A stretch of 54,638 bases of DNA, counting the filler, from Bipalium vagum (taxonomy: Eukaryota): NCBI GenBank assembly GCA_037834085.1. It is 3 parts of 3 records of this genome, joined end to end, with 100 filler letters (N's around TTAATTAATTAA, not from the genome) between each part and the next. Parts side by side here need not be neighbours in the genome. Positions count along the whole stretch, not along the records: positions 35,822 to 54,638 come from JBBMKC010018301.1; 2 more parts are not named here. The stretch is one strand, 5' to 3'. Positions 34,714-54,638 of this stretch are shown in pieces (the first letter of the stretch is position 1; every line of letters starts with the position of its first letter). A program made the position numbers and the translations under genes. The notes beneath the pieces are model-generated. The model did no database searches. It was not told the origin of the DNA and saw nothing but the letters and a program-made list of their open reading frames with translations.

Positions 34714-34928
34714 CTAAAATATCAAGAAAATGAATAAAAAGATTTCTTAAAAATTCCAAAATGATTTGATTATCTATTAATATATAATTTATTAATTCAG
34801 TCCCATGATTTAAGTTTAATACATTACAGGAATAATTGATTACTCCAGCACAGTTTTTGTTTTAATTTAAATACAACCAATTTTAAAACTTTTCATTTTC
34901 AATCTTATTTATATTTTTTATTATTCAG

Positions 34929-35647
34929 AATCCCCTCTCAAATTCAAGAACATTTGCTGCATCCCAATCTTTGTACTTGTGATAATATTTTTCATTGCAA
35001 TAATTATTAATGCTACACTATTCACAATATATAACAAAAAACCTATGGATATATTTGTTAACAAAGGTCTACTACCTCTGTTTGTGATCATGACCTGCAT
35101 TGTTTTCCTCTGCATTTTTGGCACTCTGCCGCTTCTTTGTCGAACGACGGCGTTCCTCATTCGATCTCCGTCTCGTCAATTAAAACAAATGTCAGATTCC
35201 GAAAATATTGATTTTCAAGCATCTGACACTCTTGTGAAAAACGAAATTCTGAAACTTTGCCAAATAATCTCCATCTTTGAATCCTATTTAAATTCAGAAA
35301 AAATAAGATTGTTTGTTTTTATTGATGCTGCTGATACTGAAAGCCGAGAAAAGCTAGCCAACTCAATTTATCTGATCAATGGTCTGATTCAAATGAGCTC
35401 AAATGCCCCAATTGCTTTAATTCTTGCTGCTGATTTCCAAACTCTCAATAGTGAATGGACAAATCCTTCAAATAATCCTTTATCTTCTTCTGGTATCAAA
35501 TCGAATATATTTCAGGAAATAAGTGATAATTTTCATCTGATCCACTCTACCATCCATTTACCGATTTATATGGAGGAAGGGGTTGATTTCCACAGAAATG
35601 GTTCTGGCAAAAAGAAATATGCCTCCAACGGAATGTTTTGTATAAGG
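34929..35647 (+). CDS. KIDINS220: Kidins220/ARMS-like exon (TM3-TM4 plus C-terminal half of KAP P-loop NTPase)
   Basis: ttattcag|AA TCC...AGG|gtaaaa; KFKNICCIPIFV (KWKKTCCLPSFV), two hydrophobic helices, IRLFVFIDAAD (TRLVVIIDGLD), IALILAAD (IAIFASD), STIHLPIYM (NIVHLPVFL). Donor position inferred. Confidence 0.82.
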
Positions 35648-35721
35648 GTAAAATTGATTAAAATAATTATTATCTTAATTATTATGTCATTCTTAACTTG
35701 TTATTATATGAAATTAATTAT

Positions 35722-35821: not shown

Positions 35822-36258
35822 ATTATTATTATTATTATTGTTATTATTGTTATTATTATTATTATTTTTTTTTTATTATCATTTTTTTTTATTATTATTA
35901 TTATTATAAAAATGATATTAATTAGACAAGAGATTAAATTTTAAACGTAACTAAACAATAGAAAAATGTGGAATGTAGTAAAATTTCTGGTTCAATTATG
36001 AAAAATGTAAATATTCCAGGTTGATTTCTAAAAGAAAATGCTTTTTACAAAGAATAATTAATATTGATGGACAAAGTGGTATTTTAAATGGAAATAGTGG
36101 TTAGCATCGACTTATTAATAAAATCAAAATAATAATTGGAACAGTTTAATTTTTAGATACATCTGTGTTATGAAATTAAGATCATTATTTTATTTTCACC
36201 TAATTAAAATTATTTCAATAGCAATAACAGTATGGTCCGGATATTACAAAGTCAGGTA

Positions 36259-36669
36259 CAGTCGAACCTTTTTATAAAGTCACCTCCATATAAAGTCATT
36301 TAATATTACTTTTAAAAAAATATAAATAGATTTTAACATGAATACCTCTTTAGAACGTCACTTCTCTGCAATGCCAAACCTCTCTATAACGTCAATTTTT
36401 TAAGCGCTAAATTTAACATTTGTATCATTTCTTTTAAAACTACCTCCATATGAAAAAATTGTTTAAAAAATAAAATATTAAAATTTACCTCTCAATAACG
36501 TCAAACCTGAATATGACATCATAAAATTACATAAATAAAAATTTTCTTAAAATATTATATATAAATATTAATGTAAACATTATAATATTATTAATATTAT
36601 AACGTCAAACATAATTTTAACGTCATAAAATCCTGGTCTCAACGGTGTCGTTATAAAGAGGTTTGACTG
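36259..36669. mobile_element. 411-bp pogo/Tigger-like MITE
   Basis: TIRs cagtcgaacctttttataaagtcac / gtgtcgttataaagaggtttgactg; TA on the left, CA on the right; about six internal ACCTCTxTATAACGTCA-type repeats. Confidence 0.85.
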
Positions 36670-36967
36670 CATTACGATAAATCGATTATTACGAAAAGTA
36701 TTGCAAATAGTACCTGGACGGAGAATTACATATTATTTAAATCGGTTATTATGAATATTTTGTGGCAAAACAAATATTATATCAGTGATATTTTAAAAGT
36801 TCATAATAATATTTCAACTATTATTTATATTTAAGAAATAGTTTAGTATTTTCAAACCTGGACTTAATATTTGAAGGTCAAGAGTACCTTATAAATACAT
36901 GTTTCAAAAAGAATTATAGGTTGTTTTCAATTTATTATTTATTTAAAATTCATTAAAGATGCATCAC

Positions 36968-37108
36968 CAGTGTTCTATCTAAAAAGCTGTCATCCTCTGA
37001 AGCCCGAACATTTGGCTCTGCACCTGATTCCAATAAGATCTGAGTTATCATTATTCCAATTTTTCCTGGCAAGCATGAAGATATATGAAGAAGAGCTATC
37101 AAGCCACT
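36968..37108 (-). CDS. ANKMY1: ANKMY1-like exon 11 (ankyrin repeat); last exon visible
   Basis: ttttacag|AGT...CTG|gtgatg; SGLIALLHISSCLPGKIGIMITQILLESGAEPNVRASEDDSFLDRTL. Confidence 0.85.
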
Positions 37109-37157
37109 CTGTAAAAAAATCATGTACACATTATCATTTATGAAATCTACCATTTAC

Positions 37158-37329
37158 TTCATGTCTTATACAAGAATTGACATCTGCTCCTTTACTTATC
37201 AGTAACCTAGTCATTTCAACATCTCCTGATTTCACAGCGAAAAATATTGCAGGAAATGGAACTTGACAAATGTTAGGATTTGCTCCTCTTCTCAACAATA
37301 ACTGTATAACGTCCAACATTTGATTAAAT
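37158..37329 (-). CDS. ANKMY1: ANKMY1-like exon 10 (ankyrin repeats)
   Basis: LLLRRGANPNICQVPFPAIFFAVKSGDV vs ANKMY1 [30 protein letters not shown]/GT flanks, 49-nt downstream intron. Confidence 0.92.
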
Positions 37330-38683
37330 CTAGAAATACAAAATAAGAATATGTTATGTATAATTCATTATATTTGTGTTTTTGTGTTATTAGGCTTTAC
37401 ATTAATATCAAGTCATCCCATAAGTAATGCAATTTTAACTTTGTTTTGAGACTAAAAACAATTTTATTATTAGATTGTTCAGAAATTCTTCCGATAATAA
37501 AAGGATATTTGAAATTTTCTATGAATAATGCCAATAATCACTTATTTCTAAGAACTGAGAAATTCCAGGAATATTAATATATTAAAACACAAAAAACACG
37601 TTAAATATTATATCAATACTTATATATGTTCTGTGTAGTTGTAAAAAGAAAAATCGAAGTATTTTGTGAATTATGATGAGAACTGCACATTTATCATAAC
37701 TGATAAATCATACAGTATTCCTCTAATATAAGTTTTATGGAATTTTGTCATTTGTATAAATAACATCAGAATTTCTTTATTTAGATAAAGAGTGCTCTTT
37801 ATCAATGACACGTCACTATTCACATGGATATTGAAAAGTGATGTTCAATTTATGCAGAAGAATTTATAACAAACAGTCATACTTAACTACGGAAAATATT
37901 TTGATTGATTTCAATATACAAATTTTTACTAAAATAGTGAAAATGATTAACAAGTTTTATGTTAATTCAGCACATTTTATTTTATATTATTATTCCGTTA
38001 ACATTTTCATAAATGATAATTTTGAAAATAATAAAATTACAAAATAAATCAATAAACCAATTTCCACAATTTTATTTCATTTTTGAATGATTGTGACTGA
38101 TTAGAAAATATAAATAATTAAATTTGCATCAATAAAGTTGTAGTTTTGGAAACTGTTTCTTTGACTCTTATTTCAAAGTCGAAATTATAAGATAATGGAG
38201 TTTAGGAATGACTGTTATTGATCGGCTGTATAAATATAAATTATTTTTTTTGTTTAATGAAATCATTTTTTTCATAATTTACACGTTAATGGAAAATTTA
38301 TTTTTATTTTCCCCAACGTACCTCATTTAGACCTACGCGTTATAAAGAAAATGTATATTAATAATAAACTCTTCAATTTTTCTCGCACTGAAAGGCTGTG
38401 AATCTTTGATGCTTATTATTCATGTTAGATAATTGAATTAGATTAGAAATTCTATAATATTGAAAAAAGACGCGTAAATGAAAATTAGAAAGATCGTTCA
38501 AAGGAAAAATATCAAAACTGATATTTATAGAAACTTATTCTTTACAATATCGTTTTTAACATCTTAATTGATTAGATTTAGTAGTCTCTAGATATTTTTA
38601 CGAGAAAGGTTAATTTTATTATGAAAAGAAAAAGTTATACAAGTTTCTGACGACGAATTTTAAATGAAAAAATCAAAACTAAC

Positions 38684-38965
38684 CTGGAGATTTTCAATGC
38701 TCGAAACCTAGCAGTACCTTCTGCTTTTGAGACCTCTTGGCTACAACTAGTTGGTCTAGGCTGCCGAGTGACTAGCATATTATTGACGCTTAATATTGAA
38801 GCAGCCTTATCCAAAAGAATTTGATCGACTTTTATTGGGCATTCGATATAATTGCGGTAAGAATCAAATTTGTAAGAATTGTTTTCGCTTAAAATATTTT
38901 CATCTTTTTTGTCAACTGTTTCCATCAAAATGTTCTTATTGTTACTTGGATATTCAAGAGAAATC
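38684..38965 (-). CDS. ANKMY1: ANKMY1-like exon 9
   Basis: ttttag|G ATT...TCC AG|gttagt; phase 2-2, joins exon 10 as ISR-FNQML. Confidence 0.82.
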
Positions 38966-39299
38966 CTAAAATGTAAATTAAAAAAATCAAATGTTCACTA
39001 TGTACTGTTGTAAGTAGTATTTTTAAAAGTTCTTATTTCATATTTATTCTTTATTGTTTAATCTAAATTACTTAAATGGGTTTTAAGAGTAAATAAATTG
39101 GAGTAAATAAATAATTAAAATTATATATATTATGTATGTGAATTAGTTCCCATGGTTTTGTTATAGATTAAATATTATAAATATCGAGTATTGGTCATTG
39201 AAAATAACAACTAAAAAGTAATATTGTAATATTATATATCTATAAGATATCAATAGTTAGTATTAGTTTTAACTAATTATATAGCTTATTTATATGAGC

Positions 39300-39906
39300 G
39301 AAAATGCAAAATCATAGACCAAGAAAATAGCATTTACAGGATTCATTATTATTAGCCAAACTGTTTGCGAAATATTATTTACAAGGAACTCATTTTTGCA
39401 TTGAATAACTGGTGATAAAAAATGGGTTATAAGAATCAGAGGAGAAGAAAACAATGGACAATGCCCCAATAAATTTCAACATCGACAGTACAAAGATGGA
39501 CGAACAGAAGTAAAGTGATGCTATGTATATGGTGGGATCAAACAGGAGTAATATACCATGGGTATATGAAACAATACAAAACTGTAACTGGTGATCGATA
39601 TCAGCAGCAATACCCGATTTACGTCTAGTAATAAGTACCAAGAGACCACAATATGGCCTAAGACATGATCAGATCATTTTGCAACACGATAACGCCAAAC
39701 TACATATTGAAAAGACTTGACTGGGAGGTTTTACCTCGCTCGCCGTACTAACTAACCATAACACCACTTCTCTTGGCCCTTTTTTTTCTCGATCCAAAAG
39801 TTGAAGTTACCAAAGGAAAATATTTTGACTAAAATAAATGTTTTGTTACATTTAAATAAACAACTTTATTTTCACAAAAACAATGGGAAGTAATTTCCAT
39901 ACCTAA
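39300..39906 (+). mobile_element. mauritiana-type mariner 3' remnant in ANKMY1 intron
   Basis: SFLH*ITGDK, SKVMLCIWWDQTGVIY, KRPQY..RHDQIILQHDNAK, DWEVLP; 3' TIR ...ttccatacctaa+TA. Confidence 0.85.
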
Positions 39907-39982
39907 TAATATAATATAAAAAGAAATAATTAATAAAATTACCAATAAAATAAAATAATAAATTTAATTAAAGTCTTCATAC

Positions 39983-40133
39983 TCATTCTTGACCATGTCC
40001 AATTTAATTAATGATTTTTGATAATCATTCCATTCTGCTTCCATAATACTATCTGGTTCCTTTTCGGCAAGAGGTTGTTGACTGTCCAGCTCATTCGAAG
40101 GTTTTTGACATAACCTGTTCAATATTGTTGATT
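39983..40133 (-). CDS. ANKMY1: ANKMY1-like exon 8 (linker)
   Basis: ttccag|AA TCA...AAT GA|gtatga; 151 nt, phases 1 and 2 fit both neighbouring exons; not in the ORF track. Confidence 0.75.
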
Positions 40134-40716
40134 CTGGAAATATGTATAGTTACTTTAAGGAACTTCTATTAATAGTAAACTGAATAAGTTGGTGCATTTA
40201 TAATTTCGTAAATCTATTAAAATATTTATTTTCTATTTAGAATAGTGCAGAGATGCAAGTTTGGGATATTTCAACAAAAACATTTTACGGTGGAAATAAA
40301 ACAAAACAAAACAAAGTAAAGAACCAAGTACCCCATTTAAAGTTGGCAGAACGAAAATTACTAAAATATAAAATATTTAACATTAATAGATCTAAATCAC
40401 AATATTATTAAATATTCAGATGAATGAACACTGTCGGTAGGCCCTGTTGTACAGAGCTATTATACACTCGAGGATAAAATGGTAGTGAGAGGTTGTTTGG
40501 TAAATTGAAAGAAATATAGACTGTACTCAGAACGGTATCAAATTTATTTCTCAAATTCGTCATATTACCACTTGGTTTTGTATCTGGTAGACCTATGGAT
40601 ATATACATATGTGTATTTAGACGTAATGTTCCCATCTTACGGAAATTGATGAAAATAAATTTATCTGTTTAAATCTTATGTATGTTACATTTTTACGAAT
40701 AGTTTAGTTTGAATAA

Positions 40717-41690
40717 ATGGATATTTAAGAAAAACAAAGAAGGATTGTTAGATTATTTTACCAAAGAGATATGTGCACCTATGGATAATTAAAGAGGAAA
40801 TATTTATCAAGATGCAATAATTAATATTAACAATATCAAACAATGAGAAAAGAGCTTTAAAGCTCTAGACCATAGTGTCCATGACAAAGTAATCACCAAC
40901 CGATTTCAGTTACGTACGAGAATCGACCCATGATTAATGTAATGGTTATAAAACAGAAAATCCACTTAATAAATGTTGCAAATTCCATTAACGTTTCCTA
41001 TGGTTTTCCTCATTCAATTACAAAGGCCTAGAAAAATCTTTTTTTAATATACCCTAAATGATTTTAAGTAATTATTCATGGTTTGGGATAGAAAGTCTGT
41101 AAAATAGTTTGTCAATTGCTAACAGAAGGTCTAGAGTATAAGAATTGAAATTTGTTATTAGATTTTCTGCATGCTTGAATCCCTAAATGGCTTATTCTTT
41201 TCAAATATGATTACAGGTTATGAAACTTGGATTTAACTGTACAACCTAGCTATAAAAGGCAATCAATGGAATGGCGACATCTTTCTTTTCTTCTTACAAA
41301 AATTTCAAAACTCAAATATCAAGTTAAAAAATTATAACCACATTTTTTTCCACAAAGATAGTTTAATTCTTTGTGACTCCCTGAAACAAGGTAGCATCAT
41401 AAAAATCACATCTAACATCCATACTTGGCGAAAAATAGGTACAATATCCGTTAGAAGAGAAACAGGAAGATGATAATTCCATCTAAATTCATAGTGACAA
41501 ACGATGTTAATGCAAAATGGAGTGGTCTGTTTGTTATCCCTCATCCACCATACAGCTCTAGTAAAGATCAATGTGACTTTCTTTCTCGGAACTATGAAGA
41601 ACTATTTGCGTTAAAGTCATCATTTTTTTTGTATTTATCATTTCATCATTTTGTTATTTTAAGTCCGTAAATATTTGTCCCCGGTTATGT
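40717..41690 (+). mobile_element. decayed mariner (irritans/Hsmar2-like) in ANKMY1 intron
   Basis: MITGYETWI, KRQSMEWRH, KFKTQISS, VIPHPPYS. Confidence 0.8.
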
Positions 41691-42206
41691 ACATAACCAA
41701 TTTTCAAATGTAAACATAGGAATAAATATTTTGGTACACATTTTATAGACAATTTACTATAAATCATAAATCTATTCAAACGACATCGGGATCTGACAGT
41801 AACGAGAGGAAGACTATGTTTCCCATTTGGTGAAATTGAAAAGATTTGCCCTATTTTCAGATCTTTTCAAGGACAACAGGTATCAATTCGACCCGGAAAT
41901 TTATGTATTATCGGAACCCCGTTGAATATTTTAATGGAAAATTAAAAAATGTGTTACAGGGAAAATTCAAAATTGTAAAAATGTATACCAATTTTTATTG
42001 CAATGAGCCATTAGAACATTATCAGAATTTTATTAAAATTCTTTTTCCATTTTAATAAAATGTTCATTCGGACACGGTTTTTAATTCTTTCAGATATTTG
42101 TGGATATGTTTCCAAATATCAGATGTAAAAACAAAAATTTAATTAAACAAGTTGAAAAGTCAATGGTTAACGAAGTAATTTAAAAGGTTTTCAATAGAAA
42201 AGGTAC

Positions 42207-42438
42207 CTATTTTGTCTTTTTCAAGAAAATTCTTGATGTGTTCTTTTCGGATTCCGTTGAAATTAAACGGAGTTTGATTCAATTTTACAACGGACTCAGC
42301 AATTGTTTCAATAAATCTCTTTTGGGGGTAATAAAATAACATACATGAACCCAAAGCAGATATTCCTTCATCTGTAATATGATTAATATTCGCTCCACAG
42401 TCTAATAAATAATTAATAAGGTCTTTGTTCCACGTGAG
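42207..42438 (-). CDS. ANKMY1: ANKMY1-like exon 7 (ankyrin repeat)
   Basis: tttcag|CTC ACG TGG...ATA G|gtacct; LINYLLDCGANINHITDEGISALGSCMLFYYP. Confidence 0.9.
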
Positions 42439-43949
42439 CTGAAAGTAATAAAAAATCAAAAAAAATTTATCTCAAATCATTATTTTTTATATTTTATTCA
42501 ATATTTATTCAATAAAAGAAGAGTGATTTTAAATTTATTTTAAAATATAATATTTGACATATTATTTATTTATTTTTTTCTACCAATTTTCCTGATCATT
42601 ATTAAATTTTATTATTTATATATTATTATTATATCCGAAACACAAATTAGAGATTACTTTTTTTAAATTGAGAACAAATAAAATTTAAGAAATTATTTGT
42701 TTACTAATGATTATTAGGATAATTAATTTATTAACTTTATTTCATTACAATGTAATCCGTAGGAAAATAAGGTGAAGACAACTGGCCCAAATATGCATAA
42801 CTTTATCTCTTACAAACGTGTCGCAATAACTTTTCCTAATGAGGAAGCACTTGGTCAAAATTCATTAATTATTATCATTAATTATTATTATTATTATTTG
42901 ATCAATGTTACTTATTAAACCGAAGTTCTGCACTATTCGATAGATTATGATAATAATTAATTTTCTTATAAAATAAACCGATTTATGTCTCCTTGTGCCA
43001 ATATTATATACCATGGTAACTTTATAAGTATGACAGAAACACATTTTCAATTTATATTGTCTCAGAAGCAGTACTCAGAAGCATACTATCCATGGTATGG
43101 TCTGTTGGGGACTGCTTGTTAGTGGCCCAAAAGTCGCAAAAAAAGAAACAGAGTAAAATTTAAAATATAATTGAAGTCAGTACCCCTGAGTCAATTCTTC
43201 TCTTTATATGGAAGTATTTGGTTATGTGAGCAAATATTCTCTATTATAACTTAAAAGTTCGCACTGTATAATTGTACCATTATTCAAAATATGAATCAGT
43301 GTTACATCTCACAAATAAGCACTCATTTACAAGTATTTTTATGTGTCATTCATTAATTTTTTGCGAGGTTTTTGACGTAATTCAATTTTGCATGGGTATT
43401 TAATTACTCTAGAAAAAAATTTAAATTTTATTATTCATAGATAAACGACGTATATTTATTCACGAGTGACCAATAGTTGGATGATGAACCAAAAACATAG
43501 GACACCACTGGTCTAGTAGATGTCAAGAAAAATTAACTGAGCTGCAAAACCTAGAAACTTTTCTGAAGTTTTTACTTATTCTTTTATTAGCATTCTTCAA
43601 TAACCTCTTGTTATTCATCGCCCATTATCAAACCAAACTTTGCAATATTTGTATTTATTTTTTAAGGGTCCTTTGACTACTTGAGGTTTGAAGATGTTCA
43701 AAACCCTCTTCTAGCTATTTAGAAAATAAATGAAGTTATCTAAAATATTAGAAGACTCGGGAAATTCATCAATAATAAATTTATGAATAAATGATTTCCA
43801 TTCGGAACCCTTTGACATAGTATAATAGACTTTACACCCATTTGATAAATTTTTAATCATTCGTTAATTTATAGCATTCCAAGTGTTCATTTCATAATTC
43901 ATTACAAGATTTCCAAGAATCATCTAGAGCTGTGAGGTTTGGAACATTT

Positions 43950-44260
43950 TTAATTGAGGTTAACCGTATATAAATAAATATGGACAATGCCAGACTACAT
44001 ACTGCAAGAATACTACGCAGGTAATGAGGACATAAGTAGATTCCACAAAATTTTTATCACCCTAAAGCTACATGTTCAACCATATTGAGAACTCCTTTTC
44101 TCAGGTTAAATCAATTCTCATGCATATTTTAATTATGGAATCGGAATATAGTCTGGACGATTTGATTATACAAGCAATTTTAGAAGTGAATGTAAGTGAT
44201 GCTGCAGGATGGTTTCGATTAATCAGAAGAAAATGCTCGTTGATGAAAAAAAATTTGATG
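43950..44260 (+). mobile_element. IS630-like (DDE_3) Tc1-superfamily transposase remnant
   Basis: MDNARLH...FLSP*SYMFNHIENSFSQVKS...AGWFR (MDNAxxH / LPPYSPxLNPIExxFS). Confidence 0.7.
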
Positions 44261-44370
44261 AAAAAAATTAATAAAATTTCCTTGTGTCTTAAAATATTTG
44301 ATGTTTTGTATTTGGTAATTACTTTTTTGAAAAATTTTGAAGCAAAAATAATTTTATTTTAATTACTTAC

Positions 44371-44845
44371 GGTAGCTTCTATCAAACAGAAAGAACCTCG
44401 GCAATCGGTAACATTGATATTCGGAGCTTTCGGATCCATTAGTAATGTTCTTATTTCTTCCAAATTTCCAAAATGAGATAGAGTAAGTAAAGTATCCGAC
44501 CGCTGTTCATAATCCCCAGAGGATTTGTATTTGGCAATTCTATCAATTCGATTTTCTAATTTTTTGTTGGAAAAAACATTGGACACCACATCTTTCACTA
44601 CATTCATCATATCATTGTCCTCCGAATCCTTAGGAACATTTGATGCAAATCTGGCTACATGAGAAATGATTTTCTCCATAACTGGAACAATATTATCCGA
44701 AATATCCATGTTGAACAAAAACTCAGGAAAACTCGATTCTGTTTCGATCCATTCTTTCCTTGATTCATCAAGATGAGGATCAATATATTCAATTCTTTCC
44801 AACTGTTCTAGTGAAAACAGCTCTTCACTTTCAATTGATATATTT
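44371..44845 (-). CDS. ANKMY1: ANKMY1-like exon 6
   Basis: ttccag|A AAT...GCT ACC|gtaagt; ends GDYEQRS...GNLEEIRTLL..NINVTDCRGSFCLIEAT (first ankyrin). Confidence 0.88.
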
Positions 44846-45421
44846 CTGGAAAAATATAATTATTTTTTCCATAATATATTTATATTAAATTAAAAATATT
44901 CATTTAATGACTAATTATATGTAAAATTTATTAAAAAAAATATCAATTGGTTTGATAAAATTTGTAAAAAAATTTATAATAATATATTTTGTATGAAACC
45001 TAACCTTGATTTAGTCGATTCATTGTTTTTTATTATTATCAAAAATATTCGATTCAATGTTTGAGATTTTTATCGATTTTTTCTGATTTTATGTTTAACG
45101 ATTTTTTGTTAAATTCTTTTTTGCTAAAATAATTAAAAATATTAAATTTAACTATTTTAAAAATTTTCTCCAAAAGGCACACGTAAATAATTCTATCTGA
45201 TAACCTAATGATTTTAGGTTACCTTTTTCTCTAACAATAAATACATTTTTAAAATATCAAATTCTTAAAGTTTTTTTAGGGTTTTTCAGTAATTACTATA
45301 TTGTAATTTAATAATCAATTAATAATTAAAAATTGTCATTGGAAGTGTAAAATGTTAATATGCACAAAATAATTTTTATAAAATTTGACTTAGAAATTTA
45401 CTAAATAATATAAATTTTTAC

Positions 45422-45594
45422 TGTTCTACTTGATCCTCAACATCATATATTTTATTTTCCATTTCAGTACTTTCAGGTTCATCTGAATATATCTCAGAAT
45501 TCTTCTCAGAATTCGTCTCAGATTCTTCTTTGGGACAATTTTCAATTTCCTCATAATTATTGACAAGTTGGAAAAATATTTCTTTATCGATTTT
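45422..45594 (-). CDS. ANKMY1: ANKMY1-like exon 5 (acidic linker)
   Basis: tttcag|AAA ATC GAT...GAA CA|gtaaaa; phase 0-2 fits neighbours; 48-nt upstream intron. Confidence 0.78.
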
Positions 45595-45642
45595 CTGAAA
45601 AATAAATATAGTTTAAACAAATAAATAAATGAAACATAATAC

Positions 45643-45936
45643 ATCTTCCAAGATGGAAATGATTCGTGGTCTTTTCAACTGATATTTCAGTATATAATCT
45701 AAAGGATATTGAGCTTCTGAGTATTGCACTTTACCTGACTCTGTGATCATTGGAGATTCCGATCTTTTATTCGAATATAAAGAGGTTAGATCACGGAAGT
45801 TTTCAATTGTAAATAGATCTGGTTTGTTAACTATCAATTTTAATAAAGAGCTTCGGTGCCAGAGACCAATATCTTGGCGTCCATCGCTATATCGTAAAAT
45901 TCCTGGACCACAGCAATAATTTTCTTTATAAAGTCC
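45643..45936 (-). CDS. ANKMY1: ANKMY1-like exon 4 (last MORN repeat)
   Basis: GLYKENYCCGPGILRYSDGRQDIGLWHRSSLLKL vs ANKMY1 [34 protein letters not shown]. Confidence 0.9.
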
Positions 45937-46111
45937 CTATATTAAAAAAATCAATAATTAACTGAACTAAAATACTCATAATTATTATTTTTAAGTAAAA
46001 TTAGATTTTAAACGACTTTTAATTATAAATTTTTTTATTAATAATTTCTTTTTATATATTATTTTTTTATATTTTATACATATAAGCAAATTATTTTTTT
46101 ACATTAATTTA

Positions 46112-46946
46112 CCAGGGTGAGTCAAAAGTTTTTCATTTTTAGTTATCGTAAGTATTTGTTAAACTACATCATTTAAATTTAGATTTACATAAAAGATTTG
46201 ATATCATTTTAAAATTACTAAAAAGCTGAATCTATGCACGCTTTACAATGCACGCTTTATAAACTCTATTAAATTATTTTATACTTCAGAATGATTGATG
46301 AAAAAAAGTAGGTCGAGTATTATTAACCCATACTGGAAAAAAGTGCTAACAGCAGCAGCTGTGACGTGGAAGGCAAGGGTTTTGATAAGGAAAACATAGC
46401 GCATATTGGGAAACACGAGTCTTGCAGACCAGGAACTTCCAGGCCGTTCATCATGGAAGGAGGGGACAGTTATGGTGAAGAAAGAGATATTTTGTGATCT
46501 GATAGAGCAGCAACTTTGATTGGTTATTCCCAAAGCACCATTGTGCGATATCTGTTCATTATGGGCTTTGTAAATAGAAATCCAATCCGAGTTCCTTACG
46601 AATTAACAAATATCGAATTGATCTTTGTTGCAAATTAATCAATAACCCCTGATGCATTCGGTTTTGGAAGAGAAATATTACGGCAGATGAAAAGGGGTTT
46701 TCTTTCGTAACTCCAGTTGAGGAAAGCAGTGGCTTCAGCCTGGTCAGCCAGCTCAACATGTTGTCTCTGCAAGTCACTTCGAAAGAAAAGTGATCTTGTG
46801 TGTTTGGCGGAATTATGAGGGACATGTATATTGAGAACTTGTTCAAGATGAAAAAAGAAATTTCTAGAAATAACATAATTTGTGTGAAAATGTTTTGTAA
46901 AAAAATTGTCTCATAAAAACATGAAAGATTTTTGACTCATTATATG
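46112..46946 (+). mobile_element. internally deleted Tc1/mariner element with TIRs
   Basis: TA+ccagggtgagtcaaaagtttttcat / atgaaagatttttgactca; SLADQELPGR, ITADEK, KVILCVWRNYEG traces. Confidence 0.75.
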
Positions 46947-47199
46947 TATTAATTTTTATAAACTTTTAGATTACCATTATAATTTTCTAAAGAATATGCA
47001 AAGTACACGTGAATTTTTAATTCTGACTGCCATTTCAAAAAATGTTAATAAATTTACAGATGCTCTTATAAGTTTTTTTACAACACTGTACTTATTTAAC
47101 TATAACTGTTAAACAAAATTATTCAAACTAATAACCACCGTTAGCAATAATTTTTTTCAATCTTAGAATTCATTGAAGGAAAATATTTGAAATACAGCC

Positions 47200-47860
47200 G
47201 GTAACTCATTTTTCAAGCTCTTTGAAAGATTTGAAGTAATGCTTGGTAACTAAGTTGTTGTAACGGGATACCAATGTCTTATCTTTGTGATTCAGGATTG
47301 CGAATAGGTTTTCATGCAGCAAAATCTATTTACCTTATCTTCTATTCTGTAATACGATTAACTGAGGTCTGTATGAATTTATGTAACCGTTTAGCATCTA
47401 ATGCAGAATTTTATAGCAGAGTATTCTTCTGTCAGCTGTAACAATTTGATATGGATATCGTTTTCTTTTTTCCGATCAAGCGACATATTTCGAAGTTTCT
47501 CAGCTTGAGTTTATAAAGTTTTGTATCCTTACTTGTTACTTTTCACACAAGTTCCAAAGGTAGATTTACCAATTATTGACAGACATTTAACATAAATGTG
47601 CATATAGATTTTCTATTAATTTTATCATATAGTGAAAATATAATCTTGATAAATTAATATTTATGACTGTGACTCCTGAAATTCAATAATATGAGAACTT
47701 CTGTTCTAAATTTCAACGAGTACTCCGAAACAATGTTTTTGAAATGAAAAATTTTCTGCTTATAAATTACTCCTCGGTGACCTCTTCAAATAAGTATCAC
47801 AGCTTTGGTGAATTAATCCTGAATAACTGTATCACCAACATTTTTGTAAAGCTTACAACC
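47200..47860 (-). mobile_element. possible non-LTR retrotransposon RT remnant
   Basis: Only faint QGDxLSPL-like trace (QR*DIGIPL); many stops. Confidence 0.25.
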
Positions 47861-48057
47861 CTTGAAACTGATTTTGCATTTTAATTTTTAACATTATTAT
47901 GTAGGATTCAGATTCACATATAATGATACGTGAAATAATATTTAAGCACAAACTTGATTAACTGGAAATATTGAAGAAAAATGATGAAAAAATAATAATT
48001 CATATTCATTATCATTGGTTAAAATTTTATGAAAAAATCAAAAAAAACTGAAATTAC

Positions 48058-48204
48058 TTGAAATATGTCACCATTGGAAAAGAAAACGGTTCCAAACCCT
48101 TCTCTCTTATTTTTATAGAATGTTCCGACATATTTGTTATTATTTTCAGAAACATAAGTTCCAAACCCATGCCTCGCATCTTGGTAAAATGATCCTTCAT
48201 ATCT
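48058..48204 (-). CDS. ANKMY1: ANKMY1-like exon 3 (MORN repeats)
   Basis: RYEGSFYQDARHGFGTYVSENNNKYVGTFYKNKREGFGTVFFSNGDIFQ; AG/GT flanks, phase 0-0. Confidence 0.92.
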
Positions 48205-48249
48205 CTAAAATATGTATTTAAAATTTGTGTTAAGTTGTTTAGTTTTTAC

Positions 48250-48344
48250 ATCGTTATTCGTCCACTTATAAACACCCCAACCATGTCTTTTATCGTTAAA
48301 ATATTCTCCAATATATATATCGCCATCATACCACCTTTGAAACC
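48250..48344 (-). CDS. ANKMY1: ANKMY1-like exon 2 (MORN repeats)
   Basis: FQRWYDGDIYIGEYFNDKRHGWGVYKWTNND; flanked by 44- and 45-nt introns. Confidence 0.9.
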
Positions 48345-48388
48345 CTTGAAGGAAAGACTAAAATAATTTAATTTCATATTATTTATAC

Positions 48389-48590
48389 CGATTTTATTCC
48401 TTATGCCCTTATCATAAAATCCTTCAAAATATTCACCATCAAACCATGTAAACTTTCCAAATCCACATGCTCGATTTTCAGTGAAAGGTCCTTCAAATTT
48501 TGCTCCAGTACCATATAATAGTCTTGAGGTTGTTTTAAGGATTTGAATATTAATAAAGTCTTTAAGATTGTCTGTAAAAATTAAAGTCAT
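48389..48590 (-). CDS. ANKMY1: ANKMY1-like first visible exon (MORN repeats); starts at ATG 48590 or acceptor 48571
   Basis: YGTGAKFEGPFTENRACGFGKFTWFDGEYFEGFYDKGIRNKI G|gtataa; 5' boundary ambiguous. Confidence 0.8.
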
Positions 48591-51431
48591 TGAAATATCA
48601 TTTTTGATAAAATAGTAATTCGAAAATGTATTAAATTGTATTGCTAAGACAATATCAATTTTAAGGTATTTAAACAAATGTTTCTTTTAAATAAGTGGAT
48701 TTTAAGTAAAAATTTAACTGAAACATAACTTTATGCCTGAATTAAATAAATCGCCAATTTTTTAAGATTTTCGTGCAAGAAATCAAGAATAACCATTTTT
48801 TTATCTTTTATTTTATTTAAAGCTTTATCTTTCATGATCTGTTTTATTAAAATGTCGAGTAGTTTCCGCTTCAAATTCTGTAATTATATAAATAAATAAA
48901 TTAAATAATAATTTGATATAAATTATTTTTACAAAATACAGAAATTTTATAATGAACATAAAGTCATAAGAAAATTACACTTAATTGATTATTTGTGTGT
49001 TAACCAATTTTTTCACAATTAATCACATTTTAAAAAGAAATTTAACAATTTAATTTCAATTTTCAATTTCCTTATATAAAGATAATATTAAAATAACTTT
49101 TAAAATTAAAAATGTATTTTTAAGAATTATTTTAATAATTTTTTAAGCTTTTTAAATAAATAATGAAATTAATTTTTATTTAAAATTTATTAATATAATT
49201 AATTTTCTGCTATATATAAAGCAATAGATATTGATCATACAGATACTCAACAATCTTTTGTGAAATAAATATTGATTGTTTGACTTATGAATTCGAATGA
49301 GACCTATTAACTAGCTGCAACCTAAGAGGAAGTGTCACAATTCTGTTAATATAATAACAACTAAAATATATTTATTAACCATTATATAACATTAAAATTA
49401 CTACTCGTTAATGTTATCGAAGTTTCTCATATAAAAGAGAATAATGAACACAAATTCACAATAGACTTTATTCGATATATAACAATTTCTCAATGGCAAA
49501 AAATTTCTTTCAAATCTAATATTCGAGTCTCACAAATAACATCATGATCAGTAGGATCAAAAATCACTCAATAATTGTCAAATCGAATAAATGCATTGAA
49601 TAAAAGTAAAATTCAAAATATGATACCAATAATTACGAAATCAAAACAAGGGAATGAATAAAGGTAGTATTAAAATTATTTAAATACAAATCACGAAAAA
49701 TAAGAAAAAACACTAATTTCACAGAGAAATTTCCGTTATTAAGCATTTTTGGTAGAAATATTAATATGACACATTTAACATCCAATATTAATATGTGATT
49801 CATGTCCTGTTTTATGTGCCGATTCCTATTTGTATATGAATGCCGCTTCAATCGTTTCCCCTCCGGATTAAGTCTCAGATTAAGTCTGAATTGCTTGTAA
49901 TGGCTTGAATTGTGTTGTACCTTTGCCTTTACTTTTTACTGTTACAAAACATATTGTTTCCTGTGATACCAAAATTTCATTAAATGTTATGTCAATTTAT
50001 AACACGCTTTCTCTCTTTGCTTATTTAAGCAGATATTGGAACTAGATCAAAGGAAATTCTTTGCAATATCGATATTATGTAAATTCCAATTAATTTATAG
50101 TGTGAATTATTGGTCATCACTCTTATACAATGTGCTACTTTGTGACTACTGAGTTCTATTATAATACCACTTTACTTTGAAATTCAAAACTCTGCCTTGT
50201 TACAGTTTGAATTCCCTATATAATTTTAATGCTCCTTCTTGTTATCAGTCCGGACTTTATCTCTCAGTATTGATACGGTACCTCAGGAGACCTATTGTGC
50301 TGATAAAATTATTCAGTTAACCTTCAATTTTCATAGGCATTTATCGTCCGTTCTGTATTGATTTTGCTCATTATTATCATGCGAACCCAATGCTGATAAA
50401 CGGGAATCCTCAATATGGCTACTCCCCTTTCATCTATTTCTATATCTCAGAGTTTCTCCTCTGATCTCGTTTTCTCTTTTCATGATATTTCATTGTGAAC
50501 AGACTTGTCTAATTGTGAATATATCAGGAAGAACAATCCCATTTAATAACTTATATCTCAGGTGCATCGTTGAAAAATTCTTAATAATCTTTCGATATTC
50601 TCTGCCGGCTGATGCTGTCGATGCCATTTTTTTACTTTTTGTTTACTAACTTGATTTGAGAAAAATCCGGATTCCGTCTACTACTCCTTATCTTCATCAC
50701 CATCTTTACTTCATCTGGTTAAGCCTTTCTCTTCTCATGAAACACTTTCTTGAGTTTTGCCAATTCTTTGAGGTGGTGATGAATAACAATAAATTGGCTA
50801 TGGATTATAAGCAATTTGTAATTAATCTCTATGTGAATTAAAATTTTCTATATAAGGTATACACCGATATTATCTGTGACTATTCAAATTTAACCAACAT
50901 AAATCTACTGTGTATTCCGATAATACTATCCGTGAAATTACAAAATTCATTGAATCCTTACCATATCCATATCAGGAACCTGTAATGACCCCGGTTCAAT
51001 AATATCACGTAATAATGGGTAAAAATTTTAAGAGTTCCGAAGGTATAAAGAATGAAGTACTTTCTTTCATTCATTCAAAAGATCGAGATTTCTTTAATAC
51101 TAGAATCAAACAACTTCTAAATAGATGAGAGGTAGTAATAGAGAACGATGGAGAATATTTGGATGATTAATTGTTTAATAATGTTTTATGATTAATAAAT
51201 AAAATTTAACTTCAATCTGAGTTTAATTTTTAATTTAAAAACTAAAAAACTTAGTTCGTTACCTGATATTATTTACTAATGTATACCATAACTGAGGATT
51301 TATTTACTTTTTATTAAAAATCAATTAATCATTATTGTTCAACACTATAAATGTGAAAAACAATTAGAATTTAAATTTTGATTGAAAATTTTTTTAATAT
51401 TCAGTAACCGAAATGATGAGACTCGACGATA

Positions 51432-51774
51432 TTATTTATTAAAATAAAAATGATCTAATGCTTGGTTTGCTGAAATTCGTTCCTGATAATTGTAGTCGAA
51501 CATCAAAACCAATAATGATCGTAAATCTTCCAAATGAATTAGTTCATCCAAAGTCGAGGTCGAATCTGGATTATTAACAAGTATGATATTTTCCGAATTT
51601 TCCATAATTGGATCTCCTATTATCTCAAATATGGAGTCCAACTCATTCTCCGATTCACCTTGAAACAAATGTCTTTGGATCACCATAAAAACCATAACAC
51701 AAGCAGCACTCCATATATCTATTGCTGTTCCAAAATTTTCATTTCCACAAATCAATTCAGGAGCTCTGTAGAAT
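51432..51774 (-). CDS. GSK3-like (CMGC) pseudokinase, exon 2
   Basis: acttag|A TTC TAC AGA GCT CCT GAA; FYRAPELICGNENFGTAIDIWSAACV...LFQGESENELDSIFEIIGDP...RISANQALDHFYF*. Confidence 0.92.
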
Positions 51775-51976
51775 CTAAGTAAAAGTCGATCAAATATTTT
51801 TGATTTTACATTAAAGAAGAAGTGAAAAAAGGGTAAATATGATAAATATTTCCCTAATCATAAAATGTAATGATAAAATATGTAACAGTTGTAGTGAGGA
51901 TTTAAATAAATTGAACGAAGTGATATTTCATGGTATTGTAAATAAATCAAATGGTGATAAAATTATTCGAACTTAC

Positions 51977-52641
51977 TGGTTACCAATAGAAGGAGAATTC
52001 TTTATCCCAGGAAGAATCACAGTAGTACTGTCAAAATCTATTAATTTCAGACTATAGTCATTCACATCCACCAATATATGATTTGGCTTAATGTTTCCAT
52101 GAACAATATTGAACTGATGCAGATATCCCAGACCAGACAGAATTTGCTGAGAGAATATTCTGATTATATTTTCATCCAACTGAATTTCCTTTTTGATTAA
52201 TCTGGCCATCATGGTGGACAAATTTTCAGGCATCTGTTCCATGATAAAATATTCCAAATATTGACCACGACGTGGACGAATAAAAAAGTATTTGAGTGAT
52301 ATTATATTAGGATGCATATCTGAAAATCTGAGCAACATTTTCTCTTCCGTTCTGATTCTTTTGTGTCGTAAAATTCTTTCTTTTATAATATACATTTGAT
52401 TTTTTGTAATTGGTATATATCTCTCATCATCTGGTACTACGTTAACAATACCGGAGAAGATTGAACCAAATTTTCCTTTGGACAAAGGGCGGAGTTGCTG
52501 AATTTTTAATTTTACTTTCAGAGTCGTATGGGGCATGCGAGCTTTGAAATAGGATTCCGATTTCTCGGAAATATCTTTATGGGTACTGGATACACTGAAT
52601 GAAGAACTTGCTACAGATATGTTATCAGGAAAATTATTCAT
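51977..52641 (-). CDS. GSK3-like (CMGC) pseudokinase, exon 1
   Basis: ATG at 52641; SKGKFGSIF, YIIKE, HPNIISLKYFF, HGNIKPNHIL, LKLIDFDS; AAC CA|gtaagt joins exon 2 in frame (202-nt intron, 335 aa total). Confidence 0.92.
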
Positions 52642-53739
52642 TTTGTATAATTATATTTTTTGTTTTAAAAATCTTTTTACTTACAATTTTTAAACAATTT
52701 TTTTTGTTTTAAAATTAATATTATGTGAAATTTTATTGATTTTTTAAAATTAAAATTATTTGGAAAAAAGAAGTAATAAAATCTTGATGTTCTTATAAAA
52801 TATTACTTGTTAATATATTTTAATGAAATAATATCTACTTAATTAAAACAAAAAGTATTTGAATGAGCAATTAATTTTTGTAACTTCGAATATCTTGAAT
52901 AGAAGTGCCTGTAACAATGGGTGAGCGATGCTTTTCAATTGGAATCACAATGCTTCTGTTATTGAAAAATGAAAGTTTTTAAAAATTTTAATATCAAAAA
53001 TGAAACTTTAATATCTGATTTGTAAACATTTTAACAGCCTCTTGAGTGAGAGAAAAGTGCAGGGATTTGACAAAAACATTAATACAAATGTGTACATGTA
53101 TTAATCTAGCAATAGAAAGTTTGAGATAATATTCTAATTTGATTCATTGCCAAAAATTTTAATAAAAAATTGATAAAATCCTGCCAGGAAATTGAAATAA
53201 ATTTTTATTTTGTTATGGATTAACATGGATAACACAAATTATAATTAAAAAAAATTGTTAATGGAAATCATAATCGTAAATTTGATTTGAAAAAATTTTT
53301 TAATTTATTTCAATATAAAAAAATATTTTTTTATGATTAAATATACGTCTCAAAATTCTGATTTTGTTTTAATTTTTTTAATAAATCAATGGTACTTTAT
53401 TAAAAGTTAATGGTTAGATATCTGATTCACACATGTTTAAGGATAGTTGTGGATAAACTCACAATAAAATTTTTCCTTTCTTGAAGCTTATTGTTCATAT
53501 TTACTTTCATACTTTCTTTACTTGTGGATTCGTTCATCAAATGAGTGTGTCATCGATTGAAGAATGTAGAAATCTGAATTGCAAACGTCAGATGACTGTA
53601 AATAGACAACAGTTTCTGTCTAAAATATTTTCAGACATCTTAACATCTTTTTAAAGCTCTATTCTTTTAAACATTTTTGCCTTTAATCATCGTAATTAAC
53701 GATTTCTTTTGATTATAAAACATAGTTATAATATAATTT

Positions 53740-53997
53740 AGAGATTCCACTAAACTATATATTTAGCGAACATTCGCATTAAGCAGAACGAGTAAAGTTT
53801 TAGATCACTCTTTGAATTGTGTTGTGCGAAAATGGAAAGTTAATGCTGAAGAATTTCGAATTCTTATGAATAACTTTGATAATAACGATGAACGGAAGAT
53901 ATGTGAATCGTTGTTAATAAAAGAGCGGGAACCGGAGATCAATGTTCAAACTGGAGAAAGTAAAAGCCAATGGGTGGTCAATGTTTTCTCAGATTAA
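53740..53997 (+). mobile_element. Penelope-like retroelement GIY-YIG endonuclease C-terminal remnant
   Basis: ..FSEH..LDHSLNC...FRILMNNFDNNDERKICESLLIKEREPEINVQ, matching the Penelope R..EH / F.IL / R.I.ESLFI..P.LN.Q pattern. Confidence 0.72.
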
Positions 53998-54326
53998 TTA
54001 GTTTTTAATTTTTTAAAAAAAATGAATATTTTTTTAAAAATAGAAAAGAATTTTTAAAGAATTAAAAATAATAATTTCCACCACTCAGAATTTTACAATA
54101 TATATATTGGTGCCTCGTTTCAGTTACTTTGTAATTTATCTTCTTAATTTTTTTATTGACTTGTGATCTGTCTACATATACATTTACGATACGAACTGAA
54201 TTAATTACATAAAATCTTGAATAAAATTATAATACTTTTGGAAATGATATTTGGTAGACTTGAGTCCTAAAGGCTCATATAGAGAAATGAACATGAACTG
54301 AAATTAACAATAAATAAGCAGTAATA

Positions 54327-54520
54327 CAGGGTGGCCACTAAAAGACTTACCAATTTAAAATTGATCTGAAATTGAAAATATAAATGATTTTTTTTAAATT
54401 TTTTTAGATAATATAAAGCATTTCTTGGAATTTAAATGAATGTTTATAATATTCCACACCGAGTAAAACTAATTGAGTTATACTATGCAAATTGTTGGGT
54501 TTACCAAGACACCCTCCGGG
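54327..54520. mobile_element. possible Tc1/mariner-type terminus or MITE
   Basis: TA+cagggtggccac terminus; weak partner gacaccct near 54508-54515. Confidence 0.35.
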
Positions 54521-54638
54521 AAAAAAATAAATAATAAAAACTATAAATAATGTATAAATAATAATAATATTAATAATTAAAAATTAATTAATACTTGAAA
54601 GTCATTGAAAAATTCCCAGGGATTTTATTTTTAAACTA

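Follow-up and report, generated by a model that had tools for sequence, protein, structure and literature searches.

In the 54,638-nucleotide stretch of the Bipalium vagum genome assembly GCA_037834085.1 analysed here (the window), the minus strand carries a GSK3-like gene at 51432–52641, within the third of the three joined parts (35822–54638). Its sequence suggests that this focal gene is an intact divergent GSK3 paralogue that is catalytically dead and kept by selection as a protein-binding module, a reading we consider probable though well short of certain. By the sequence definition of a pseudokinase, given in the available text of PMC13519141 as loss of at least one of the VAIK Lys, HRD Asp and DFG Asp, the predicted protein would count as a pseudokinase through the loss of the HRD Asp alone. 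If the focal gene proves conserved and expressed, it would be a case of a central kinase, normally invariant, taking on a non-enzymatic role, which RNAi could probe directly in a tractable animal group. The gene also draws attention to a divergent GSK3 subfamily that has been overlooked, here called the L004 group after its B. vagum member (L004, P0020, P0077 and P0054).

Gene structure and sequence support

Spliced translation of the focal gene runs from an ATG at 52641 to a stop at 51432 and gives 335 aa with a single terminal stop. The original prediction of an uninterrupted 335-aa frame with a 202-nt GT-AG intron was borne out by this translation and by a test of splice pairs, among which only the one donor/acceptor combination gave GT-AG; the donor is a perfect GTAAGT. 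The GSK3 scaffold motifs on which the prediction had relied, and the HGNIKPNH, DFD and SKGKFG motifs, were all found. The positions of the exons and principal motifs are listed in the table.

Table. Features of the focal gene in window coordinates
Feature	Position	Strand	Remarks
Exon 1, codons 1–222	51977..52641 (665 nt)	-	Ser-rich N-terminal arm, N-lobe, catalytic loop, activation loop
Intron, 202 nt, GT-AG, phase 2, at GSK3 R220 codon	51775..51976	-	GTAAGT...TTAG
Exon 2, P+1 loop to kinase domain end and stop	51432..51774	-	Without GSK3 C-terminal tail, like L004
Glycine loop SKGKFG	52465..52482	-	G65, F67, G68 kept
Beta3 Lys87-Glu88	52378..52383	-	One of the two fills the K85 position; register decides which
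Glu99-Glu100	52342..52347	-	AlphaC Glu kept in both registers; priming Arg96 lost
Catalytic loop HGNIKPNH	52078..52101	-	R180G, D181N, N186H; H179, K183 kept
DFD for DFG	52030..52038	-	D200, F201 kept; G202D
YRAPEL, P+1 loop and APE motif	51753..51770	-	Kept, by alignment
AlphaG, Axin/FRAT groove region	51627..51650	-	V263E, Q265E, V267D, E268S, I270F; 288–296 loop beyond deleted in alignment
Part of intron and exon 2 with a decayed, frameshifted duplicate elsewhere	51621..51928	-	Duplicate at G000:C257294:4467-4754

Pfam Pkinase matched both exon 1 (E 7e-20) and exon 2 (E 4e-14), and the top PDB sequence matches were GSK3 for exon 1 and CDK2 for exon 2 alone. GC content at the first, second and third codon positions was 0.40/0.29/0.31 in the focal gene and 0.40/0.26/0.30 in L004, with 0.21–0.23 in the intron and flanks of the focal gene. 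The predicted structure, made for exon 1 only, had a mean pLDDT of 74, with values below 50 for residues 1–27 and a kinase fold beyond, and a TM of about 0.7 to GSK3-beta, a fold match that is not independent because a GSK3 alignment underlay the model. A 1782-base contig from run X1 was identical to 51244–53025 (0 differences) at a single-copy depth of 21.5, although this agreement is not independent either because X1 may be the assembly's own source data. Hemizygosity of the locus was rejected, given depths of 20–27 in the neighbouring contigs.

A second perfect GTAAGT lies at 52684 (minus strand), 43 bases upstream of the ATG; paired with a TGTAG near 52610, it might mark off an intron in the 5' region, with translation then starting later, at Met36. 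Very high-copy repeats flank the focal gene at 51015–51270 and at approximately 53740–54638 (summed contig depth above 10,000). A short fragment at 53871–53987 is 68% identical to L156:5407-5523; the two lie near the focal gene and near its dead duplicate, respectively, in opposite relative orientation, and are possibly pieces of a mobile element. Elsewhere in the window, the minus strand at 38600–50650 carries a neighbouring gene of several exons whose sequence is in part MORN-like and in part ankyrin-like (weak Pfam MORN match, E 0.035) and which may be ANKMY1. On the plus strand, an ORF at 34871–35719 is cut by the joint of parts and resembles a KAP-family P-loop only weakly (E 0.02, below the cut-off).

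GSK3-family loci and origin of the focal gene

At least six GSK3-family loci were found in the genome, on C96312 (L044), C5469 (L046), C150724 (L047), C12388 (L007), C193885 (L004) and C18301 (the focal gene). Two architectures were observed, one multi-exon with shared junctions and the other two-exon with one shared intron. L044 is the canonical multi-exon GSK3, and L046 and L047 are multi-exon paralogues represented by partial sequence only. Among the two-exon loci, L007 clusters in the trees with proteins of Opisthorchis and Macrostomum (100/98 and 99/96), a placement typical of a flatworm genome, whose low GC would in turn fit a planarian. L004 (1369–2411) is a divergent GSK3 with intact catalytic motifs and three broken recent copies, L005 (C227212), L006 (C241940) and L132 (C174924), the first of which has a deletion that takes out the intron region plus flanking codons. 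The L004 group as a whole, in which P0020, P0077 and P0054 come from ENA assemblies and show approximately 43–46% identity, lacks Y216 and the C-terminal tail and has a 3-residue deletion before alphaC. The available text of PMC12837073 gives three GSK3 genes for Fasciola, so some GSK3 expansion is usual in flatworms.

Three further loci were noted. L026 (G000:C167446:1-231), a 231-base contig with a GSK3 C-lobe fragment in which the L044 intron is missing and a stop is present, is likely a processed pseudogene. An intronless, frame-broken HSP90 fragment (L004:108-1207) lies directly upstream of the L004 kinase. P0145 (Logan, 341 aa) is a degenerate GSK3 with HNDITPSN and DFN that lacks the priming arginines and the loop Lys but keeps the catalytic Asp; it did not group with the focal gene in the tree, and kinship between the two was not rejected (p 0.16).

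Near-identical members of a cluster were omitted from the phylogenetic trees, and the 30-row tree was also built without P0054. The focal gene fell inside GSK3, apart from CDK, MAPK and DYRK/PRP4, with an SH-aLRT of 91 in a quick tree of 65 rows, and inside GSK3 with support of 99/94 and 93/90 in 30 rows and 97/96 in 23 rows. It was sister to L004/P0020/P0077 in the 30-row tree (96/93) and grouped with the L004 group including P0054 in the 65-row quick tree (94 SH-aLRT), with the sister grouping dropping to 70/87 on exon 1 alone. Its branch length was 1.7–2.2, and its exact placement is unsure because the branch is long. Two origins were rejected, namely from canonical GSK3 (L044; p-AU 8e-5) and, weakly, as a recent duplicate of L004 itself (p-AU 0.035). 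Neither P0054 as the sister of the focal gene (p-AU 0.12) nor a joint clade with the L007 clade, which was not recovered (p-AU 0.22), was rejected.

A phase-2 intron at the R220 codon is common to the focal gene, L004 (47 nt), L006 and L007 (216 nt), and the canonical L044 model has no intron at this codon. The GSK3 origin claimed from the start is upheld by the trees and the common intron, with placement alongside a non-GSK3 outgroup still not rejected (p-AU 0.087). Together these sequence data support a GSK3-derived gene that appears to come from the divergent subfamily and not from canonical GSK3. The losses of Y216 and of the C-terminal tail are shared with L004 and are therefore likely older than the catalytic losses.

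Catalytic and substrate-binding residues

Residues were numbered as in human GSK3-beta, using a numbering that agrees with the PDB mapping (query 85–215 to 1i09 83–213), and were compared by alignment with those of 48 further GSK3-type proteins. In this alignment the focal gene has the changes R180G, D181N, N186H, G202D, K205T, Y216S, R220Q and A83I, and keeps G65, F67, G68, the alphaC Glu, H179, K183, D200, F201, YRAPEL, D239, W241 and R328. The changes D181N, N186H, G202D, R180G and K205T fall in columns that are 92–100% invariant among the 48 GSK3-type rows. The HRD Asp is Asn183 in the focal protein and the DFG Asp is kept; the intact HRD, catalytic-loop Asn and DFG of canonical GSK3 are replaced by HGNIKPNH and DFD. 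With D181 and N186 lost and an Asp at the DFG Gly, established kinase chemistry makes phosphotransfer by the predicted protein very unlikely.

The beta3 Lys depends on the alignment register. Ungapped HMMER and MAFFT alignments place Glu88 in the K85 column, and when the protein is matched to P0054 without gaps the alphaC Glu is Glu99, with Lys87 then 12 residues upstream at the canonical spacing. The original prediction that both the beta3 Lys and APE are kept thus stands for APE, with YRAPEL present, and for the lysine holds in the P0054 register (Lys87) and fails in the HMMER/MAFFT register (Glu88 at K85). The structure model does not settle the register because it covers exon 1 only, has the alignment with Glu88 at K85 and comes without coordinates. 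A similar correction applies to the primed-phosphate pocket of GSK3 (R96/R180/K205), which had been read as changed to E/G/T. The pocket is lost, with G and T as read, but R96 corresponds in the second register to Thr98 and not to Glu; under either register (E or T) the arginine is gone.

Activation-loop Y216, from the motif SYICSR, is absent, and Ser218 in SIGNQ is found instead. The loss of Y216 had been predicted correctly, but it is common to intact-looking sisters (Asp in L004, Arg in P0077), and P0126 and P0007 likewise have another residue in place of the first G-loop Gly. As both changes are shared with other kinases, neither is diagnostic of inactivity.

Retention of the reading frame and scaffold

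The distribution of losses was assessed over 51 columns at ≥90% conservation, leaving out P357 (beyond the focal protein's end). The focal gene keeps 27/32 structural, 5/11 catalytic or ATP-binding and 1/8 primed-pocket or activation-loop columns; over the same columns L004 keeps 24/32, 11/11 and 5/8, respectively. Among the columns kept by L004, the focal gene holds 22 of 24 structural sites vs 5 of 16 active-site or substrate sites (Fisher p 1e-4, or 4e-4 with K87 counted as kept, in both cases with site classes assigned post hoc after the alignment had been inspected). A class-free version, using sites where L004 and L007 agree, gave 26/39 vs 25/54 and only p 0.06. The hydrophobic core is kept at 71/81 positions in the focal gene and 70/81 in L004.

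Neutral decay was simulated under an AT-biased model in 1500 runs. At 9% residue change the frame was still open in 180 runs without indels and 38 with indels, falling to 59 and 3 runs, respectively, at 13% residue change. Under neutral decay, the probability that the catalytic hits coincide with an open frame and an intact scaffold was ≤0.021. All three extra copies of L004 have frame-breaking indels or stops, at 90–94% identity or after deletions.

The duplicate of the focal gene on C257294 covers the intron and the start of exon 2, is 76% identical and frameshifted, stands at approximately 0.3 substitutions per site and already has the altered alphaG. As it has drifted so far, the focal frame has stayed open through much drift. 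Identity is 111/147 in the exon and 99/130 in the intron; the exon is no closer than the intron, so the duplicate gives no rate evidence of constraint, and as it lacks exon 1 the catalytic losses are not datable from it. DNA comparison within the genome found no further copies of exon 1, only matches upstream of it in the AT-rich flank. The selective losses, the simulation and the decayed duplicate support the original view of the gene as a retained, probably non-catalytic paralogue.

Alternative explanations

The main competing account is that a formerly active, fast-evolving GSK3 paralogue died recently, the catalytic changes being early neutral decay with no stop yet. Dead GSK3 copies are numerous in this genome (L005, L006, L132, L026 and L002), no orthologue was found in the searches made, and R180G, D181N, N186H and G202D could each be a single-base change, judging from the present codons. 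The intact-looking P0054 scores near-equally to the focal gene and to L004 (64 and 68 bits), and its non-rejected position as sister of the focal gene also fits this account. A recent death would nevertheless have to spare the structural sites and the perfect splice donor, and the neutral bound given above, which takes in three catalytic hits, tightens to ≤0.005 with R180 counted; we therefore regard it as rather unlikely. That an ordinary kinase gene was misassembled or misread is hardly credible. The assembly is fragmented (272,664 contigs) and the locus was found in one run only, but the X1 contig matches without differences at a depth like that of its neighbours, and the changes are several separate in-frame substitutions.

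Two further accounts both seem improbable. The focal protein might be an atypical or low-activity kinase or ATPase that binds ATP in a rearranged active site, like HER3, JAK2 JH2 (HRN) or POMK. It retains H179, K183, D200, the GxFG core and the alphaC Glu, and possibly also the beta3 Lys; DFG has become DFD, and the G-loop has two extra lysines, although these lie elsewhere than at the WNK lysine position. The available text of PMC13519141 reports low activity in HRN pseudokinases and describes in POMK (DLD) an Asp at the DFG Gly that pairs with a migrated Lys, but POMK keeps the catalytic Asp that the focal protein lacks. Residual activity is made still less plausible by the loss of N186 and by an Ile that takes the place of Ala83 in the ATP pocket whichever register is used. 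Marginally less probable again is a role in the Wnt destruction complex as a dominant-negative GSK3 or decoy that binds Axin and shields beta-catenin. Such a decoy has a precedent in principle, as planarian Wnt components are duplicated and include a truncated inhibitory beta-catenin, beta-catenin-4 (PMC5643146, available text), and the focal gene keeps L266 and a GSK3 fold predicted for exon 1. Its Axin surface, by contrast, carries Y216S, V263E, V267D, E268S and I270F and has lost the 288–296 loop (F291, F293) in the alignment, so that V267, E268 and F291 of the canonical Axin/FRAT groove are all absent. All three Axin-binding mutant sets of GSK3 in the available text of PMC9794558 (Y216F, V267G/E268R and F291L) fall on positions changed or deleted in the focal gene. 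This altered surface argues against a Wnt dominant-negative, as do the missing primed pocket and the rejected canonical origin. The Wnt/beta-catenin dominant-negative or Axin scaffold role first suggested is accordingly weakened by the Axin surface and by the origin from a divergent subfamily, and with the groove altered a bearing on Wnt axis patterning is unlikely, which sets the stakes below the first estimate.

Proposed function

Under the favoured reading of a retained, catalytically dead binding module, a duplication would have occurred in a flatworm GSK3 lineage that was poor in introns, evolved fast and already lacked Y216 and the C-terminal tail, and selection would then have been released on the active site and not on the fold. 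The protein would work without phosphotransfer. With its primed-phosphate pocket gone it would not trap primed substrates, and with both pocket and Axin groove altered it would compete neither for classical GSK3 substrates nor for Axin; it probably acts outside the Wnt pathway. The kinase scaffold, stable and with its P+1/APE region intact, would remain and serve as a non-catalytic binding module. Pseudokinases are common, and several regulate active relatives, as in HER3–EGFR, STRAD–LKB1 and JAK JH2–JH1. By analogy, and given the rest of this explanation, the partner might be the active-looking sister kinase of the L004 type or its substrates, in a restricted cell type, which we offer as a tentative suggestion. 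A bolder extension would make the gene a lineage-wide conserved GSK3 pseudokinase of free-living flatworms, the first to be described in the GSK3 family, that allosterically regulates its tail-less, Y216-less sister kinase in a flatworm-specific module apart from Wnt; this is speculative and, at present, rather doubtful.

Database and literature searches

No orthologue was found among 65 candidates in the exon 1 search, and exon 2 gave two weak matches among 144 candidates when compared with longer proteins, both outside GSK3 in the tree. A phmmer search of 1.84 billion representatives gave no orthologue among the 150 matches listed of 9058, the best single-domain scores there being approximately 80 bits at approximately 30% identity. 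A five-sequence profile (88 of 1750 candidates) likewise gave no orthologue, only its own input P0077 being close, and neither did the 79 loci from metagenome contigs (best E 1e-16 at 28%); the ESM Atlas gave generic kinase clusters only. Planarian coverage of the databases searched looks patchy, with relatives of L004 there only as single-exon fragments. The literature search turned up no flatworm pseudokinase derived from GSK3; such genes may be listed, supplements included, in the work of Kwon et al. 2019, said to be a pseudokinase survey, or of Adell et al. 2008, in which Smed-GSK3.2 and Smed-GSK3.3 reportedly appear as divergent planarian GSK3 paralogues.

Comparison with known systems

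Human GSK3-beta and GSK3-alpha (PDB 1i09, 7sxg) came out on top when exon 1 was compared with the PDB, both by sequence and by fold, the fold being that of the model based on a GSK3 alignment. Canonical GSK3, including L044, has in common with the focal gene the kinase scaffold, YRAPEL/APE, D239, W241 and R328, at only 23% identity for L044 (70/298). In contrast to canonical GSK3, the focal gene lacks D181, N186, G202, R96/R180/K205, Y216, the Axin groove and the C-terminal tail, and it has one intron vs six junctions in the L044 model.

The L004 group shares with the focal gene the intron (in L004), the loss of Y216 and of E249, C218G, G244A, F229C, I270F and the truncated C-terminus. Unlike the focal gene, L004, P0020, P0077 and P0054 keep HRD, N186, DFG and K85, and L004 is only 28% identical to it (86/303). 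The second GSK3 clade, which is flatworm-wide (L007, Opisthorchis P0089, Clonorchis P0151 and Macrostomum P0126), has an insertion between alphaC and beta4, as does the focal gene, and L007 has the same phase-2 intron at 30% identity (90/304), but this clade is catalytically intact, with Y216 and the primed pocket.

Outside the GSK3 family, the same replacement of the catalytic Asp by Asn is found, according to the available text of PMC13519141, in HER3/ErbB3 and JAK2 JH2 (HRN), the latter with DFG also altered. Both are domains of tyrosine kinases and have kept ATP and Mg binding. The focal gene differs from them in being CMGC/GSK3-derived, in standing alone and in having lost the catalytic-loop Asn as well. 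Judged from its sequence, the focal protein would work like an HRN-type pseudokinase while descending from GSK3, and it lacks every functional feature of canonical GSK3 that was tested.
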